Assembly: GCA_035295705.1 (NCBI GenBank)
Contig: DATGIN010000003.1
Location: forward strand, 3,476-67,475
Length of the DNA stretch: 64,000 nucleotides
Direction of reading: 5' to 3'
Source of the DNA: Caulobacteraceae bacterium
GTDB lineage: Bacteria; Pseudomonadota; Alphaproteobacteria; Caulobacterales; Caulobacteraceae
In this document: piece after piece, positions 5,873 through 36,614 of the stretch
Position numbering within the stretch: the stretch's first letter is position 1
Layout: every line of letters begins with the position of its first letter
Notes under the pieces: model-generated
What the model was told of the DNA's origin: nothing
What the model saw: the letters and a program-made list of their open reading frames with translations, nothing else
The model's database searches: none
Translations under genes and position numbers: made by a program

Positions 5873-6341
5873 GGCGCCGGCCGCCGCGCCGGACAGAACC
5901 TCAACCCCAAGCATCGTGAGCGAGATGAATACGTTTTCCGACCCCAACGCCGCGCGGAAGTCCGCATCGCCCAAGGTGGCCTCGCTGATCGCCGAGGATA
6001 CGACGATCGACGGCGGCGTCAGTGGCGACACCGAGCTGCATGTCGACGGCACCATTCGCGGAGACGTGGCGGTGGCGCGCCTCTCGATCGGCGAGACCGG
6101 CCAGATCGAAGGCGCCATTCAGGCCGAGGCCGTCGAGGCCCGCGGCCGCGTGATCGGCTCGATCACCGCCAAGCAGGTCAGGCTGTACGCCAGCTGCCAC
6201 ATCGATGGGGACATCACCCACGAACAGCTGACGATGGAGGCCGGGGCCTTCTTCCAGGGCCGCAGCCTGAAGTTCCAGCGCAACACCGCCCCGGTGGCGC
6301 AGATCACCGGCGAAGTGATCGAGATCACCGCCGCGGAATAG
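5850..6341 (+). CDS. bacA: Bactofilin cytoskeletal protein
   Basis: Beta-helix repeats LHVDGTIRGDV / IGETGQIEGAI / CHIDGDITHEQLTMEAGAFFQG; MFSK N-terminus; ATG overlaps end of M23 gene. Confidence 0.9.
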   Translation: MFSKQPNKAPAAAPDRTSTPSIVSEMNTFSDPNAARKSASPKVASLIAEDTTIDGGVSGDTELHVDGTIRGDVAVARLSIGETGQIEGAIQAEAVEARGRVIGSITAKQVRLYASCHIDGDITHEQLTMEAGAFFQGRSLKFQRNTAPVAQITGEVIEITAAE

Positions 6342-17794: not shown

Positions 17795-18511
17795 ATGAAC
17801 GTCCCCCGCCGCCTCATGGCGCTCGCCGCACTTGCCGTTCTGCTTAGCGCCTGCAGCAAATCCGATGCATCGTTCGACGCCAAGGTGCACGATTACATCC
17901 TGGCGCACCCCGAGGTGATCCAGCAGGCGATCGCCAAGCTTCAGGCGCAGCAGGACCAGCAGGCGGCGCAGCAGGCCAAGCTGGCGATCGCGCAGAACCG
18001 GCAGAGCCTGGAGCGCGATCCGCGCGACTACGTCGCCAATCCGAACGGCCGCATCACGGTGACCGAGTTCTATGACTATCGGTGCCCGCACTGCATCAAC
18101 GCCGCCCCGGCGGTATTGAAGATCATCCACGACCACTCGGATGTGCGGTTCGTGTTCAAGGAGTTTCCGATCTTCGGCGACATCTCCGAGCATGCCGCCG
18201 CCGGCGCGATCCAGCTGAAAAAGCAAGGGGGCGACGTGGTCTCGCTCTACAGCGACTTCATGAACACCCATCCGTTGGACGACGCCGCCATCGACCGCAT
18301 CCTGCGCGCGCATGGCGTCGACCCGGCGACGCTGGACAAGCCGGACGTCCACGCCCAGACGCAAGCGCAACTGCTGGCGGTGCGCAAGCTTGCGATCGAC
18401 CTCGGCATCGAGGGCACGCCCGCCTTCATCGTCGGCGACACCCTCATCCCCGGCGACGACACCGACGCGATCAACGCCGCCATCAACCAGGCCCGCGCCC
18501 GCGCCGGCTGA
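17795..18511 (+). CDS. DsbA-family thiol-disulfide oxidoreductase lipoprotein
   Basis: Lipobox LSAC, EFYDYRCPHC, FKEFPIF, GTPAF cis-Pro loop. Confidence 0.9.
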   Translation: MNVPRRLMALAALAVLLSACSKSDASFDAKVHDYILAHPEVIQQAIAKLQAQQDQQAAQQAKLAIAQNRQSLERDPRDYVANPNGRITVTEFYDYRCPHCINAAPAVLKIIHDHSDVRFVFKEFPIFGDISEHAAAGAIQLKKQGGDVVSLYSDFMNTHPLDDAAIDRILRAHGVDPATLDKPDVHAQTQAQLLAVRKLAIDLGIEGTPAFIVGDTLIPGDDTDAINAAINQARARAG

Positions 18512-18526
18512 GCCGATCCGGCGACC

Positions 18527-18595
18527 TTGACTGACATGGTGCGGCGCACCATATGAGCCGCAAGAATGCTGCGTCGCACCATTGGCGGCGCAGCG
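18527..18595 (+). promoter_or_regulatory. Promoter with tandem PhaR/AniA-like boxes
   Basis: TTGACT at 18527; TGCGGCGCACCA (18540-18551) and TGCGTCGCACCA (18570-18581) exactly 30 bp apart; degenerate third copy GGCGGCGCAGCG (18584-18595). Confidence 0.5.
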
Positions 18596-18612
18596 GGATT
18601 GGAGGCCCTGTC

Positions 18613-18720
18613 ATGTTCAATCGTCTGATCCAGTGGATCGATGAAGCCTTCGCAGAGGGCTTCGAGCTCGTCGGCCGGCTGCCGCCTCAGGCGCTCCGTC
18701 CCGGCGCATACCCGTTCTGA
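18613..18720 (+). CDS. Small protein, 35 aa: MFNRLIQWIDEAFAEGFELVGRLPPQALRPGAYPF
   Basis: GGAGG SD 7 nt before ATG, own promoter upstream and hairpin terminator directly after TGA; below the ORF-track size cut-off. Confidence 0.6.
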   Translation: MFNRLIQWIDEAFAEGFELVGRLPPQALRPGAYPF

Positions 18721-18724
18721 CGCC

Positions 18725-18756
18725 GAAAGCGGCGCGCCCCGAGGCGCGCCGCTTTC
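18725..18756. terminator. Bidirectional hairpin terminator between the small ORF and thiG
   Basis: GAAAGCGGCGCGCC-ccga-GGCGCGCCGCTTTC, perfect 14-bp stem between convergent genes. Confidence 0.75.
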
Positions 18757-18784: not shown

Positions 18785-19591
18785 TCAAATCAGGCCCGCC
18801 AGCGGCGAGGAGGGGTCCGCGTACGTCCGCTTGGCCATGCGCCCGGCAAGGTAGGCTTCCCGGCCGGCGATCACCGCGTGCTTCATCGCGCGGGCCATCC
18901 GCACCGGGTCCTTGGCCTCGGCGATCGCGGTATTGGTCAGGACCGCATCACAACCGAGCTCCATCGCCTCGACCGCATCGGCGGCCGCCCCGACGCCGGC
19001 ATCGACCAGCACCGGCACGGTCGATTGCTCGACGATCAGGCGGATGTTGAGCGGGTTCTGCAGGCCGAGACCCGACCCGATCGGCGCACCGGCCGGCATG
19101 ATCGCCGCGGCGCCAGCGTCCTCGAGCTTGCGGCAGAACACCGGATCGTCGGTGCAATAGGCCATCACCGAGAATCCATCGGCGACCAGGAGCTCGAGCG
19201 CGCGCAGCGTCTCCACCATGTCGGGGTAGAGGTGCCTGGTGTTTGACAGCACCTCGAGCTTGACGAGGTCCCAGCCGCCGGCTTCGCGGGCCAGTCTCAG
19301 CGTGCGGACGGCGTCCTCGGCCGTGAAGCAACCGGCCGTGTTCGGCAGGTAGGTGAAGCGGTCGGGTTTGACGTGGTCGACCAGCATCGGCTGGCTGGGG
19401 TCGCTCAGATTGACCCGGCGGAGCGCGACGGTAACGATTTCGGCGCCGGCGGCCTCCGCCGCGGCGGCGTTCAGCGCGTAGTCCTTGTACTTGCCGGTTC
19501 CGACGATCAGGCGCGAGTGGAACACGCGTCCGGCGAGCGTCCAGACGTCCTCTTCGACATTGGCCTCGGGCCTCAGCGCGACTTCGTTCAT
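18785..19591 (-). CDS. thiG: Thiazole synthase
   Basis: [38 protein letters not shown]. Confidence 0.96.
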
Positions 19592-19597
19592 GCGGCG

Positions 19598-19798
19598 TCA
19601 TCCGCCTCCAATGAAATGCACGATTTCGATCCGGTCACCGTCGGCGATCGGCGCCTGGCGATAGGTCGACCGCGGCACGATCTGGAGGTTTCTCTCCACC
19701 GCGACCTTGCGCACGTCGAGGCCGAGGCAGGCGATCAGGCCGGCCACGGTCGCGATCCCGGAAAACGCCCGTTCCTCGCCGTTGACGGTCAGTCGCAT
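19598..19798 (-). CDS. thiS: Sulfur carrier protein ThiS
   Basis: 66 aa, LTVNGE...VAVERN...IEIVHFIGGG C-terminus; upstream of thiG. Confidence 0.95.
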   Translation of the reverse strand: MRLTVNGEERAFSGIATVAGLIACLGLDVRKVAVERNLQIVPRSTYRQAPIADGDRIEIVHFIGGG

Positions 19799-19801
19799 GC
19801 C

Positions 19802-19906
19802 TCTCCCTTCGCCGGCATGACCCGGATCAGGTCCAGCGGGTCGCCGCGCCGAAAATGCGGCCTCTCAGCCCCTTTGCGCAAAAAGCGGCGGGACTCCCCG
19901 GAGAAT
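19802..19906 (-). ncRNA. TPP (thi-box) riboswitch upstream of thiS-thiG
   Basis: Minus strand GGGG...GCTGAGA...GACCCG-ctg-GACCTGATC-c-GG-g-TCATGCC-g-GCG-a-AGGGA matches the THI consensus; P1 3' arm GGGAGAG is the thiS SD. Confidence 0.93.
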
Positions 19907-20046
19907 GGCGCGGACCTTAGGACCCACGGCCGCCGGGTCAAGCGGCGAGATGGCGCGGGGCGTCAGCTTGTTCGCCGCGGCAGGCGACGATAGAAGACGC
20001 GGCGCGCGAAACGCCTGAAGCAGGCGAGCCTCTCAGCCGGGAGCCG

Positions 20047-31617: not shown

Positions 31618-34368
31618 TCAATCGGCTTGGCCGTCGTCGCCGTCTTCGGAATCGTCGGGTTCCCCCTCGCCTTCCAGCCGCTCAACGCCCACGACGTGCT
31701 CGTCGTCCGCGGTGCGGAAGATGGTCACGCCCGATGTGTTGCGTCCCGCGATGCGAATGCCCTCGACCGGCACGCGGATGAGCTGACCCTGATCGGTCAC
31801 CAGCAAGATCTCGTCGGAGTCCTCGACGGGGAAGGAGGCGACCAGGCGGCCGCCTTTCTTGGACAGGTCGTGCGCGATGAGGCCCTGCCCGCCGCGGCCG
31901 GTGCGCCGATATTCATAGGCCGACGTACGCTTGCCGAAGCCTTCGCTGGACACCGTCAGGATGTATTCCTCGGCAGCCTGCAGTTCGGCGATGCGCTCGA
32001 TCGTGAGGCTCACCTCGCCGTTCTCGCCGGTCTCGTCATCGTCGGCGGCGTTGGTCTCCTCCTCTGCCCCCTGCGCGGCGCGCATGGCGCTCGCGTGCCT
32101 GAGGTAGGCCGAGCGTTCGGCCGGCGTTGCATCGACCCCGTGCAGGATGGCCATCGAGATCACCTGGTCGCCGGCCGCGAGCCTGACGCCGCGCACGCCG
32201 GTCGACTCGCGGCCGGCGAAGACGCGGACCTCGTCGGCCGGGAATCGGATGCAGCGGGCGAGCGCCGTCGTCAGCAGGACGTCATTGGCCGTCGTGCATA
32301 GTCCCACGCCGATGATGGCGTCGCCTTCGTCCAGCTTCATGGCGATCTTGCCGCCACGATGGACCTGCACGAAGTCGGCCAGCTTGTTGCGGCGGACGCC
32401 GCCCGTTCGGGTCGCGAACATCACGTCCAGCCGCGCCCAACTCACCTCGTCTTCGGGCAACGGCAGGATGGAGGTGATCGTCTCGCCTGGCTCGATCGGC
32501 AGGAGATTGATGAAGGCTTTGCCGCGTGACGCCGGTTGACCCAGCGGCAGCCGCCAGACCTTCAGCTTGTAGACCTTGCCCCCGGACGAGAAGAACAGCA
32601 CCGACGCATGGGTCGAAGCCGAAAAGACGCGGGTGACGGCGTCTTCCTCCTTCGTCGCCATGCCGGCGCGGCCCTTGCCGCCGCGACGCTGGGTCCGATA
32701 GGTCGCGAGCGGCGTGCGCTTGACGTAGCCGCCATGGGTCACCGTGATGACCATGTCCTCGCGCTCGATAAGGTCTTCATCCTCGAGGTCGGCTTCGCCC
32801 TCGACGATCATGGTCTGCCGCGGGACCGCGAAGTCCTCACGCACCTCGACAAGCTCGCTTCGGACGATCGCCAGGATGCGCTCGCGGGACGAGAGAATTT
32901 CGAGCTTTTCACGGATCTCGGCGGCCAGGGCCTCGGCCTCGGCGAAGATCTCATCGCGGCCCAGGCCCGTCAGCCGCGACAGCGTGAGCGCCAGGATCGC
33001 GCGCGCCTGCTCCTCGGTCAGCTGAATGCGGCCGCCTTCGACGAGCAACGTGCGCGGGTCGGCGATCAGGTCGATCAACGCCGCCATGTCGCCGATCGGC
33101 CAGGCCCGCCCGACCAGCCGCTCGCGCGCCTCGGCGGGGTCCTTCGCCTGTCGGATGATGCGGATGGCTTCGTCGATGTTCGCGACCGCGATTGCGAGGC
33201 CGACCAGGACGTGGCCGCGGTCGCGGGCCTTGGCGAGCTCGAACTTGGTCCGCCGGACGACGACATCTTCGCGGAAGTTCACGAAGTGCGCGAGCATGTC
33301 GCGCAGGCTCATCTGCTCCGGGCGGCCGTGGTTGAGGGCCAGCATGTTGGCCGGAAACGAGCTCTGCAGCGTCGTGAAACGGTAGAGCTGGTTCAGCACC
33401 ACCTCGGGCGAGGCGTCGCGCTTGATCTCGACGACGACGCGCAAGCCCTGGCGATCGCTTTCGTCGCGCAGGTCCGAGACGCCCTCGATGCGCTTTTCGC
33501 GCACCAGCTCGGCGATACGCTCGACCATCGCGGCCTTGTTCACCTGGAACGGGATCGAGGTGATGACGATCGCCTCACGGTCCTTGCGGATCTCTTCGAT
33601 CGTGGCCACGCCGCGCATGATCACCGACCCGCGGCCGGTCAGCAGCGCCTGGCGCGCGCCTGAACGGCCGACGATCTCGCCGCCGGTCGGGAAGTCGGGA
33701 CCTGGGACGATGTCGAGCAGCGCTTCGGCGCTGATGTCGGGATCGTCGATCATCGCCAGGCACGCGTCGACGATCTCGCCGAGGTTGTGGGGCGGCACGT
33801 TGGTGGCCATGCCGACGGCGATGCCGCCGGAGCCGTTCACGAGCAGGTTCGGAACCCGCGAAGGCAGAACCACCGGCTCGCGCGCACGGCCGTCATAGTT
33901 GTCCTGGAAGTCGACCGTGTCGGCGTCGATGTCGGCCAGCAAGGCCATCGCCGCCTTGGTCAGCCGACATTCGGTGTAGCGCATCTGCGCCGGCGGGTCG
34001 TTGTCGATCGAGCCGAAGTTGCCCTGGCCATCGACCAGCAACAGGTTCTCCGAGAACGGCTGCGCCATCCGCACCAGCGCGTCGTAGATGGAGGCGTCGC
34101 CGTGCGGGTGATAATTGGCCATCACGTTGCCGACGACGTTGGCGCACTTCACGTATCCGCGGTCGGGCGTATGCCCCTGCTCGTTCATCGAATGCAGGAT
34201 GCGCCGCTGCACGGGTTTGAGCCCGTCGCGCACGTCCGGAAGCGCGCGCGCGACGATCACGCTCATCGCGTAGTCGAGGTACGAGCGCTTGAGCTCGTCC
34301 TCCAGCGCGATCGGCGCGACCGCGCCTCGCCGGCCGTCGTCCGGCGGTCTGGTTTCGTCGTCGCTCAA
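31618..34368 (-). CDS. gyrA: DNA gyrase subunit A
   Basis: [20 protein letters not shown] catalytic Tyr, GyrA-box QRRGGKG, C-terminal pinwheel repeats. Confidence 0.97.
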
Positions 34369-34629
34369 CGGATTTTCAAGCGCGAGAATCGGGCGCGAAA
34401 GTCATGAAACGGTTTAGCATCTTGCAGTGCAGCAAGGCAAAGATTCTCGGGTGGCTGAAGGGCCCCGAACTGCGCCCCAGGCGCGCGCGCCTTACAGGTT
34501 CGTAATGTTGTACGAGGCGGGCGGCGTGTAAGCTCCGTCCCGCCGATGCGGGGCGCATGGGGGGACATGTTCGAGCGATCGCCGCTGGCGCGCGCCAGCC
34601 CCCATGGACGGGCTTCCTGACGTGGCTGC

Positions 34630-35898
34630 ATGAGCAACGAGACGCTGCTGAACCAGCTGCGCATCGACCGCGATGCCCCGAAAAAACGTCCCCAGCGACG
34701 ACGCCGACGGCCGTGGGCGCTGATCATCGGCGCCGCCGCGGCGGCGCTGGCGGTGATCGGGGCTCTGGTTTGGTACCTGGTCGCCCAGCCAGACCGCACG
34801 GCGGTGCGGGCGGCCACGGCCGCCGCGGTGTCATCGGCCGGGGCGCCGCAGGGAGCGCCGCTGCTGGATGCTTCCGGCTACGTCGTCGCGCAGCGCGAGG
34901 CCACGGTCTCGGCGAAGATCCCGGGCAAGGTGCTGGCGGTGTTGATCCAGGAAGGACAGCGGGTCGCCGCCGGCCAGGTGATCGCGCGACTGGACGACTC
35001 GAACGCGCGCGCCGCCGAAGCGCAGGCCGCCGCTCAGGTCGCACAGGCCGAGGCCAATGTTCGGCTGGCGCAGGCCGCGTTAGCCAACGCGCAGGTGAAA
35101 TTCGACCGCTACGGGGGCCTAAAGGGCAAGGGCGTGGTGGCCGACCAGGCCATCGACGACGCCCGAACGACGCTCGACAACGCCCGCGCCGATCTTGGCG
35201 TGCAACGCAGCGCCGTCGCTGTGGCGAGCGCGGGGCTGAACGTTGCGCGCCGCAACCTCGACGACACCATCGTCCGCGCGCCCTTCGCCGGCGTTGTGAC
35301 CGCGACCGCCGCCCAGCCTGGCGAGATCGTCGCGCCGGTCGCTGGCGGCGGATTCACCCGCACCGGAATCTGCACGATCGTCGACATGGACTCGCTCGAG
35401 GTCGACGTCGATGTCGCCGAAAGCTTCATCAACCGCGTGCGTCAGGGCATGCCGGCGGTGGTTCGCCTGAACGCCTATCCGGACTGGGCGATTCCGGCCG
35501 AGTTGCTGGCGGTGATCCCGACCGCGGACCGCTCCAAGGCGACCGTCGCCGTTCGCGTGGCGTTGAAGGTGAAGGACCCGCGCATCGTGCCGGAGATGGG
35601 CGCGCGCGTGACCTTTCTCAGCCCAGCGCCGGCTGGCGCGCCGGCCGGCGGCCCGGAGGGCGGGGTGAGCGTTCCCGACGAGGCGGTGAAGACGGGCGAC
35701 GACGGCCAGTCGGTGGTGTTCGTGATCGGCGATGGGCGACGGGTGGAGCGTCGCGCCGTGCGCCTCGGCCCGCACGAGGGCGCCAATCAGATCGTGATCG
35801 CGGGCCTGCGCCCCGGCGAGACCGTCGCGATCAGCGACAAGACGCTGAACGACGGCGACAAAGTGCGTGTGATCAAGGGCGACGCCCAAGGCGACTAG
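34630..35898 (+). CDS. Periplasmic membrane-fusion (adaptor) protein of an ABC exporter
   Basis: N-terminal TM, ASGYVVA, lipoyl/barrel-sandwich half motifs, coiled coil, IVRAPFAGVV. Confidence 0.9.
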   Translation: MSNETLLNQLRIDRDAPKKRPQRRRRRPWALIIGAAAAALAVIGALVWYLVAQPDRTAVRAATAAAVSSAGAPQGAPLLDASGYVVAQREATVSAKIPGKVLAVLIQEGQRVAAGQVIARLDDSNARAAEAQAAAQVAQAEANVRLAQAALANAQVKFDRYGGLKGKGVVADQAIDDARTTLDNARADLGVQRSAVAVASAGLNVARRNLDDTIVRAPFAGVVTATAAQPGEIVAPVAGGGFTRTGICTIVDMDSLEVDVDVAESFINRVRQGMPAVVRLNAYPDWAIPAELLAVIPTADRSKATVAVRVALKVKDPRIVPEMGARVTFLSPAPAGAPAGGPEGGVSVPDEAVKTGDDGQSVVFVIGDGRRVERRAVRLGPHEGANQIVIAGLRPGETVAISDKTLNDGDKVRVIKGDAQGD

Positions 35899-35915
35899 GA
35901 CGGAAGGAGGGCGGC

Positions 35916-36614
35916 ATGGCCCCGGTGGTCAGCCTAAGACACGTGATCAAGCGCTACCGGCGCGGCCGGCAGGCGATCGAAGTGTTGCACAACCTCGATC
36001 TCGAGGTGGAAGCCGGCGAGTTCCTGGCGCTGATGGGCCCGTCTGGGTCCGGCAAGACCACGCTGCTGAACCTCATCGGCGGCCTCGACCGCGCGACCGA
36101 GGGCGAGGTGATCGTCGCCGGCGAAAACCTCGACAACCTCACCGGCAGCGAGCTCGCGCACTGGCGCTCGCGTCACGTCGGCTTCGTATTCCAGTTCTAC
36201 AACCTGATGCCGACTCTCTCAGCCGAGCGGAACGTCGAGCTGCCGCTGCTGCTCACATCGCTCTCCAACGCCGACCGCAAGAGGAGCGTCGCCGCCGCGC
36301 TCGAGCTTGTCGGCCTGACCGACTGGCGCAAACACCGCCCGAACGAGCTCTCGGGCGGCCAGCAGCAGCGCGTCGCGATCGCCCGCGCCATCGTCGCCGA
36401 CCCGACGCTCCTGGTATGCGACGAGCCGACAGGGGATCTCGATCGCGAGACCGCCGAAGACGTGCTGGGTCTGGTGCAACAGCTGAACCGGGGCCACGGC
36501 AAGACGGTGGTCATGGTTACGCACGACCCCAAGGCCGCCTCCTTCGCCTCGCGCATCGTCAATCTCGACAAGGGCGCGCTGGTTCCGGCCTCGCTCGCCG
36601 ACGCCGCCGTATGA
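35916..36614 (+). CDS. ABC transporter ATP-binding protein (LolD/MacB-type)
   Basis: Walker A GPSGSGKT, signature LSGGQQ, Walker [16 protein letters not shown]. Confidence 0.95.

Follow-up and report, generated by a model that had tools for sequence, protein, structure and literature searches.

The stretch of Caulobacteraceae DNA analyzed here (GenBank assembly GCA_035295705.1, contig DATGIN010000003.1, positions 3,476 to 67,475; 64,000 nucleotides, referred to as the window) raises the question of whether the gap between a dsbA-like gene and thiG harbors a gene of its own, and if so, what controls it and what its product does. A first-pass annotation of the sequence had proposed that this gap encodes a micro-protein of 35 amino acids (aa), transcribed as a separate unit under tandem binding sites for PhaR, the regulator of polyhydroxybutyrate (PHB) metabolism. 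The analysis shows that the 35-aa open reading frame (ORF) is a real gene under purifying selection. The two palindromes at its predicted promoter are very probably PhaR operators, as judged from their sequence, position and occurrence elsewhere. The genome containing the unit is an assembly of 3.78 Mb with 69.5% GC that resembles a metagenome-assembled genome (MAG). In window coordinates the unit comprises the following elements, for which conservation refers to the genus of the source genome and to a second Caulobacteraceae genus.

18526 to 18531, plus strand: -35 element CTTGAC, invariant in 12 of 12 genus genomes (alignment A2) and in 10 of 10 second-genus genomes (alignment A6).
18537 to 18551, no strand: box 1, TGGTGCGGCGCACCA, a perfect 15-bp palindrome and PhaR-type operator that fills the promoter spacer and overlaps the -10 element.
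18549 to 18554, plus strand: -10 element CCATAT, 17 nt 3' of the -35 element; GCACCATAT shows no variation in 12 of 12 genomes.
18567 to 18581, no strand: box 2, TGCTGCGTCGCACCA, a further PhaR-type operator at about the position where transcription is expected to begin.
18601 to 18605, plus strand: Shine-Dalgarno (SD) sequence GGAGG, 7 nt ahead of the ATG; a GGAG-type motif occurs at similar spacing in most relatives.
18613 to 18720 including the stop, plus strand: 35-codon micro-protein gene with the product MFNRLIQWIDEAFAEGFELVGRLPPQALRPGAYPF (ATG at 18613, coding part 18613-18717, TGA at 18718-18720).
18725 to 18756, no strand: GC-rich symmetric hairpin with a 14-bp stem and the loop CCGA (dG -34.6 kcal/mol, z -5.0).

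The SD sequence and the ORF were both located where the first-pass annotation had seen them, and the conservation of the ORF in relatives, on which that annotation had made its reading depend, was found in two genera. Homologues were detected by a six-frame search in 12 of 18 genomes of the same uncultured Caulobacteraceae genus and by a profile search in 30 of the 78 second-genus genomes. In both genera the homologues are 34-36 aa long. Within the genus the ATG is invariant and the stop codon in register, and the sole indel is a single codon, in frame. According to the Nei-Gojobori method the proportion of nonsynonymous differences is below that of synonymous ones (pN<pS) in all 66 pairs of the 12 genus sequences, and dN/dS against the source genome (G000) ranges from 0.09 to 0.56. 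Column entropies at codon positions 1, 2 and 3 are 0.60, 0.43 and 0.88. Frame 0 alone is free of stops across all 12 sequences, the other frames being interrupted, and the GC content of third codon positions (GC3, 0.77) exceeds that of the first and second. A profile search against 1.84 billion representative proteins yielded 38 clusters at 50% identity, two of which are unrelated long proteins. Members of the remaining clusters, at least 36, are nearly all 34-36 aa long or are longer calls that share the same C-terminus. An order-wide search of 401 genomes gave no convincing homologue outside the Caulobacteraceae. Inside the family, the gene was absent from all genomes sampled in the other genera, among them the large-genome genus g41; as judged from these searches, the family is restricted to two genera of this group.

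These data bear on two explanations in which the peptide is absent or secondary. The ORF could be spurious or untranslated and owe its conservation to overlapping regulatory DNA. It is indeed very short, and its GC3 lies below the values of 0.8-0.95 that are typical of the listed ORFs of this genome, but the codon-periodic conservation, the constant length across clusters, the conserved SD sequence and ATG and the absence of a gene on the opposite strand at the ORF make this explanation very improbable. Alternatively, the transcript could act mainly or additionally as a regulatory RNA, either a small RNA (sRNA) like MmgR or one derived from the 3' untranslated region (3'-UTR), with the ORF in a secondary role. 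A PhaR-repressed sRNA, mmgR, is known (PMC12542648), the mRNA of a small protein can give rise to a 3'-UTR sRNA, as in the case of RSP_7527 and UdsC (PMC9779115), and the unit spans only about 200 nt, with a hairpin of high stability at its end. Against this stand the substitution pattern, with variation at wobble positions, fixed length and invariant start, and the retention of the peptide motifs across two genera despite diverged DNA. Furthermore, the 5' leader and the 3' region of the unit are poorly conserved (column identity 0.52-0.53 in 12 genomes), and between 17500 and 20500 no Rfam model matched the unit at E<=1, a TPP riboswitch being the sole match in that interval. The sRNA alternative, which the first-pass annotation had kept in view, is therefore disfavored by the coding signature and the lack of an Rfam match, and is considered improbable, if slightly less so than a spurious ORF.

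Two other readings of the coding region were rejected. A 55-aa version starting from an ATG at 18553 would begin inside the -10 element and operator, and its upstream part is not conserved as protein. A leader peptide or attenuator does not fit the arrangement, as in either genus the gene that follows is oriented convergently. The gene had been described as unannotated, which holds in so far as it has no family name and its relatives are listed as 'hypothetical protein'; in two public metagenome assemblies a 35-aa gene for exactly this peptide has already been predicted, which makes the gene unnamed but not unseen. Several over-long database calls (P0030, P0033, P0042, P0057, P0060 and P0063) translate the operator into peptides such as 'VRCTIS', 'LHRTI', 'MLRRTIA' and 'VRCTI'. 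Such operator-derived pseudo-motifs provide a fingerprint for spotting operator-linked family members in protein databases.

The sequence upstream of the ORF was then considered with regard to its regulation. Alphaproteobacterial promoters of the S. meliloti type follow the consensus CTTGAC-N17-CTATAT. The corresponding sequence of the unit, CTTGAC-N17-CCATAT, is a near-consensus alphaproteobacterial promoter, and its -35 element fits the S. meliloti-type consensus; from the conservation of both hexamers we infer that they form the promoter. The hexamer TTGACT that had been proposed as the -35 element is present at 18527-18532, although CTTGAC at 18526-18531 reads better. The two 12-mers noted earlier, TGCGGCGCACCA at 18540-18551 and TGCGTCGCACCA at 18570-18581, are spaced by exactly 30 bp and could be refined to the 15-mer boxes 1 and 2. 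A degenerate third box had also been suspected (around 18584-18595) but is probably no site, as the surrounding stretch is poorly conserved (column identity 0.53). In the alignment of 12 genomes the block of -35 element, box 1 and -10 element reaches a column identity of 0.89 and box 2 one of 0.91, against 0.45-0.65 for the flanking sequence, the stretch between the boxes and the leader. At least one box of the TGC-N3-GCA type is located on or just after the promoter in 12 genus genomes, in 10 second-genus genomes and in two divergent members from metagenomes. With box 1 inside the 17-nt spacer and box 2 on the 3' side of the -10 element, the sites overlap the predicted promoter and start.

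The consensus TGCRNYGCASMA, which the first-pass annotation had given for Bradyrhizobium, is genuine; in B. diazoefficiens it was obtained by DNase I footprinting of phaP1 and phaP4 (PMC6201568). Both 12-mers of the unit match it at 12 of 12 positions. In S. meliloti, PhaR (also called AniA) binds the palindromic core YGC-RNY-GCR, as determined by electrophoretic mobility shift assays with mutated sites; two copies occur at phaP1 and phaP2, and single copies beside the -35 or -10 element at two depolymerase genes (PMC12542648). Both boxes fit this core as well. Using a strict 15-mer definition (T[GT][GCT]TGC-N3-GCA with mirrored arm), 18 sites were counted in the 3.78-Mb genome. Only two pairs of such sites lie less than 70 bp apart, one in the unit described here and the other in the promoter of the phasin gene, and both pairs are spaced by 30 bp. 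The tandem of strict 15-mers is thus significant beyond chance.

The genome encodes PhaR itself (PF07879, 100.8 bits) and carries the motif at genes of PHB metabolism. A PhaR-type box, CTGCAGCGCAG, is located about 100 nt upstream of phaR (C128:6403), and another precedes phaZ, the gene for an intracellular PHB depolymerase (PF06850, 311.8 bits; C236:4732). Tandem boxes at C49:33734 and C49:33764 are found upstream of phaP, a 145-aa Phasin_2 gene (PF09361). The boxes at the phasin promoter are 30 bp apart in 7 of 7 genus genomes, and are positioned just upstream of the phasin -35 element.

A further line of evidence was obtained by scanning one genome per species, 185,579 species in total, for the literal promoter-operator string CTTGAC-N8-TGC-N3-GCACCATAT. 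The string was matched 67 times, compared with about 17 matches expected by chance according to our own estimate. Ten of these matches are the small ORF itself in Caulobacteraceae MAGs, whereas 34 precede Phasin_2 genes (34 of 34 tested) in Rhodobacterales, Hyphomicrobiales, Dongiaceae and Rhodospirillaceae, and two more are phasin starts interrupted by the end of the locus. Since the string is shared with phasin genes, the micro-protein gene uses a promoter-operator cassette of the phasin type. Three matches lie directly upstream of phaR in Zixibacteria MAGs (L060, L063 and L072) and contain perfect palindromes such as TGGTGCGGTGCACCA. This indicates that the promoter-embedded PhaR operator is conserved far beyond the Alphaproteobacteria. 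Two further matches, in Bradyrhizobium sp. LHD-71 (L059:6574-6602) and in an unclassified alphaproteobacterial MAG (L110), precede a GNAT gene; the respective ORFs of 214 and 165 aa have closely similar N-termini, and the 214-aa product is an acetyltransferase (PF00583). Judged from its promoter, this gene is a possible, hitherto unrecognized PhaR target. About 11 matches in unrelated phyla look like chance. The species-wide scan is the strongest single result for the assignment of the boxes to PhaR.

It could be argued that the palindromes serve a regulator other than PhaR, or are mere promoter architecture, and that the link to PHB is coincidental. Cores of the form TGC-N3-GCA are frequent in a genome of 70% GC, and strict sites were also found at genes without a connection to PHB, namely the acyl-CoA thioesterase gene, the atp operon region and the surroundings of gyrA. 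On the other hand, the extended motif recurs in tandem at phaP in 7 of 7 genus genomes and is also present at phaZ and phaR, the exact string precedes phasin and phaR genes elsewhere, and the motif is identical to the PhaR sites that experiments have defined in two alphaproteobacteria. A different regulator, or mere promoter architecture, is hence considered improbable, to about the same degree as a regulatory RNA. Thus the PhaR-repressed, stand-alone micro-protein gene proposed by the first-pass annotation is the favored interpretation, with the conserved ORF, boxes of the footprinted type, the occurrence of the motif at phaP, phaZ and phaR and the shared string all pointing in this direction. 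On this sequence evidence the unit is likely, with good confidence, to be a PhaR-controlled protein-coding gene.

Apart from the genes already mentioned, the genome contains other sites of this type. The perfect palindrome TTGTGCGCCGCACAA precedes the gene for an acyl-CoA thioesterase II (PF02551; C94:308), a candidate member of the regulon. Inside the window, the consensus 12-mer TGCAGTGCAGCA occurs within TCTTGCAGTGCAGCA at 34420-34434, in the gap that separates gyrA (31618-34368, minus strand) from a divergently oriented ABC transporter gene (34557-36614). Pfam relates neither of these genes to PHB, and the box may be due to chance. A second small ORF of 37 aa (MTTSLTDIIDRFAMTFGQLAMLAALPVAAIALAVHAL) was detected elsewhere in the genome, outside the window (C135:5886-6037, with the ORF given as 5924-6037; locus L121:1463-1614), about 22 nt downstream of the PhaR-type box ATGCTGCGACGCAACAT. 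The C-terminal half of its product resembles a membrane helix, and no Pfam match was obtained for it. ORF and box are conserved together in 8 genus genomes examined, and the peptide was found in 9 of 13 searched. From these sequences, PhaR may control more than one micro-protein in this organism.

The neighborhood of the gene was compared between the two genera. In the window the unit is flanked by two genes that are given for context only.

17795 to 18511, plus strand: upstream neighbor, a gene for an ScsC/DsbA-like thiol-disulfide oxidoreductase (Pfam PF01323, PF13462 and PF18312).
18785 to 19591, minus strand: downstream convergent neighbor, thiG (Pfam PF05690, 366.9 bits).

In the loci examined from the same genus, the gene is mostly found between the ScsC/DsbA-like gene and thiG, and the two divergent metagenome members, in which the boxes are recognizable, are also located 3' of an ScsC/DsbA-like gene. 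In the second genus the gene has an ABC exporter gene upstream and, downstream, a convergent gene that encodes about 402 aa. The boxes, the SD sequence, the 35-aa ORF and the hairpin are all retained there. The promoter region of this genus consists of CCTTGAC, about 17 nt, CCTAT and the boxes TGCACTGCAACA and TGCACTGCACAA, which are 15 bp apart and reach into the SD sequence, and a T-run comes after the hairpin behind the ORF in almost every locus with sequence that far. That the boxes have stayed with the ORF despite rearrangement speaks for a function. As far as can be judged from sequence, promoter, boxes and ORF behave as one mobile, self-contained module.

Most second-genus loci (L039-L049; A6 columns 55-80) additionally possess a conserved box, TGCTGCGTCGCA-N3-TGATCG, about 100 nt upstream of the -35 element and adjoining the 3' side of the ABC exporter gene; by its sequence it may serve as a third PhaR site or as another promoter. 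On the thiG side of the window, a TPP riboswitch (RF00059, 65.6 bits) at 19787-19910 on the minus strand is located upstream of thiS-thiG and is ordinary. The hairpin at 18725-18756 had been described as a perfect 14-bp terminator. A strong 14-bp hairpin is indeed present, and because it is symmetric and placed between the convergent small ORF and thiG, it is likely a bidirectional terminator common to both, although the terminator part of the description fared less well, as set out below.

The peptides of the family share the consensus M-x5-R-W-I-x2-(A/L)-F-x-(P/D/E)-x-F-E-L-L-x2-L-P-P-x-A-x-(R/N)-x3-(Y/F/A)-P-F. The amphipathic N-terminal helix anticipated by the first-pass annotation is borne out by the hydrophobic moment (muH), which is 0.58 for residues 2-21, a value reached by 0.1% of shuffled sequences. 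In six family members muH of this segment ranges from 0.45 to 0.61, and at most 0.6% of shuffles reach these values. AlphaFold2, supplied with an alignment of 21 sequences, predicts a helix from residue 2 to 22 (pLDDT about 86), a turn at LPP and a low-confidence tail (mean pLDDT 78.5). The mean hydrophobicity is 0.26-0.45, and neither a signal peptide nor a transmembrane segment was detected in the peptide. The tail carries the motif LPPxAxR...(Y/F/A)PF, in which P24 and P34 are the best-conserved residues and L23, P25, A27 and F35 are nearly invariant. Because the best-conserved residues sit in the tail, the LPP...PF segment suggests a docking motif, beyond a helix that merely binds a surface.

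Comparison with known proteins gave no relatives. The peptide had no match in Pfam at E<=1 and none above the cut-off among NCBIfam models, and no relation to chains of the Protein Data Bank was found with the peptide or its profile. The RSP_7527 family (NF046098) was considered and rejected, as 3 of 21 members match with a best E value of 0.056, below the 26-bit cut-off, and the ORF was not found in a search of the source genome. A truncated phasin left behind a phasin promoter was likewise rejected, since the alignment of the family with phasins (hhalign) has a probability of 0.1%. Of the mini-phasin suggested earlier, the functional analogy of an amphipathic helix is retained, whereas a sequence relation to phasins is not.

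In the established model the synthesis of PHB sequesters PhaR on the granules. The model has been summarized for Caulobacter (bioRxiv 10.1101/2023.07.06.548030) and shown for S. meliloti (PMC12542648). Caulobacter crescentus NA1000 possesses phaR (CCNA_00543). For the unit described here we infer PhaR binding, derepression by PHB, the start site as well as the promoter, and the function of the peptide from the features described above. PhaR, the granule-sensing repressor, would bind both palindromic operators. With box 1 in the spacer between the -35 and -10 elements and box 2 over the expected start, RNA polymerase would be occluded. Once PHB is made, PhaR would be drawn onto the granules and leave the DNA, so that the derepressed micro-protein would be made alongside the phasin and the PHB depolymerase. 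Its amphipathic helix (2-22) would then most probably associate with a hydrophobic surface, the PHB granule being the first candidate, and the conserved LPP...PF tail would contact a partner. As an overall explanation, a PhaR-regulon unit for a 35-residue cytoplasmic micro-protein composed of an amphipathic helix and a conserved tail is probable, though held a little less firmly than PhaR control of a protein-coding gene as such. That the peptide acts at the granule surface can be proposed only tentatively. Slightly more speculative is the idea of 'micro-phasins', a possible new class of surface component of PHB granules (carbonosomes) unrelated in sequence to phasins, in which the helix might anchor on the polymer while the tail might recruit or tune PhaC, PhaZ or PhaR itself. 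If that idea is true, the 37-aa ORF with its PhaR-type box hints at several micro-proteins missed by annotation and proteomics.

A gene that is controlled by PhaR and translated might instead serve a target other than the granule. Its product could bind the inner membrane, or a soluble protein such as an enzyme or a regulator, and adjust metabolism during carbon storage. In a variant of this explanation the peptide could directly modulate PhaR, PhaC or PhaZ. PhaR regulons extend far past PHB genes, and those of S. meliloti include small hypothetical proteins (PMC12542648). The strictly conserved C-terminus resembles a docking motif more than a surface binder, the peptide lacks phasin homology, and the second PhaR-boxed small ORF of the genome resembles a membrane helix. 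Conversely, nothing points to a specific partner, and the neighborhood differs between the genera and offers no functional hint. The peptide also lacks a transmembrane segment, and its mean hydrophobicity is low. A target other than the granule is therefore doubtful, though far less improbable than a regulatory RNA or a regulator other than PhaR.

Several observations weigh against the interpretation of the unit as a PhaR-controlled gene for a granule-associated micro-protein. In the genome as a whole, TGCRNYGCASMA has 50 matches compared with 31 for the reversed control, so that a single 12-mer is near chance. The spacing of box 1 and box 2 at the small-ORF gene varies from 28 to 30 bp within the genus, and the distance of exactly 30 bp is therefore no constraint. 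One genome has a degenerate box 1, and a degenerate box 2 occurs in two second-genus genomes. The hairpin at the end of the unit has a UUUC tail without a U-run, and a standard terminator scan was negative. All carriers observed are uncultured MAGs or metagenome contigs; the relatives of the source genome have been entered in databases under 'Caulobacteraceae bacterium' as MAGs that stem mostly from soil catalogues. The gene is patchily distributed in both genera, while PhaR is present in 294 of 301 genomes of the family. Thus the gene is dispensable, and its co-occurrence with PhaR is uninformative. Finally, the family shows homology neither to phasins, with the hhalign result given above, nor to any other known family, and consequently co-regulation and amphipathicity are what a role at the granule rests on.

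The findings nevertheless have implications beyond this locus. A family of at least 36 clusters has kept PhaR-type operators of its own in two genera with different neighborhoods, which leads to the testable hypothesis that the micro-protein joins the granule surface or modulates PHB turnover. Searches guided by operators can reveal micro-protein genes that are overlooked by homology-based annotation or listed there as 'hypothetical'. The family would merit greater attention if its members turned out to belong to the granule or to modulate PHB enzymes, and if the peptide binds PHB, a granule tag of 20 residues could serve PHB-bead display technology.

The PhaR circuit as such, with palindromic operators and derepression by PHB, is textbook knowledge. 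What is new is a lineage-restricted 35-aa family without described relatives that is tightly coupled to PhaR-type operators. The closest parallels to its control region are the phaP promoters under PhaR/AniA, i.e. phaP1 and phaP2 of S. meliloti and phaP1 and phaP4 of B. diazoefficiens (PMC12542648, PMC6201568). Their operator is the palindrome of this unit as well, TGC-RNY-GCA flanked by extended arms; it is frequently present twice and lies either on the sigma-70 promoter or next to it. By analogy the same logic would be expected, in which repression is lifted when PHB granules titrate PhaR. The products differ, as phasins of about 113-165 aa are encoded at the other string matches and a 35-aa peptide unrelated to Phasin_2 is encoded here. 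MmgR (alpha-r8) of S. meliloti is likewise a short, stand-alone unit repressed by AniA/PhaR; its promoter bears a PhaR operator, and it is linked to PHB metabolism. It is an sRNA, however, whereas the present unit possesses a selected ORF with an SD sequence and matches no Rfam family. RSP_7527 (NF046098) of Rhodobacter sphaeroides is also a small alphaproteobacterial protein made from a short stand-alone mRNA, which in that case yields the sRNA UdsC, but it depends on RpoHII and not on PhaR (PMC9779115). SMc03998 and SMc02051 of S. meliloti are small hypothetical proteins with PhaR motifs in their promoters that are strongly derepressed without PhaR. They were identified in proteomic data from a cultured model organism, whereas the present family is known from sequence and is likened to them by description only. 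Small hypothetical proteins under strong regulation continue to emerge from PhaR regulons, and alongside these two proteins the family described here represents a clean case.

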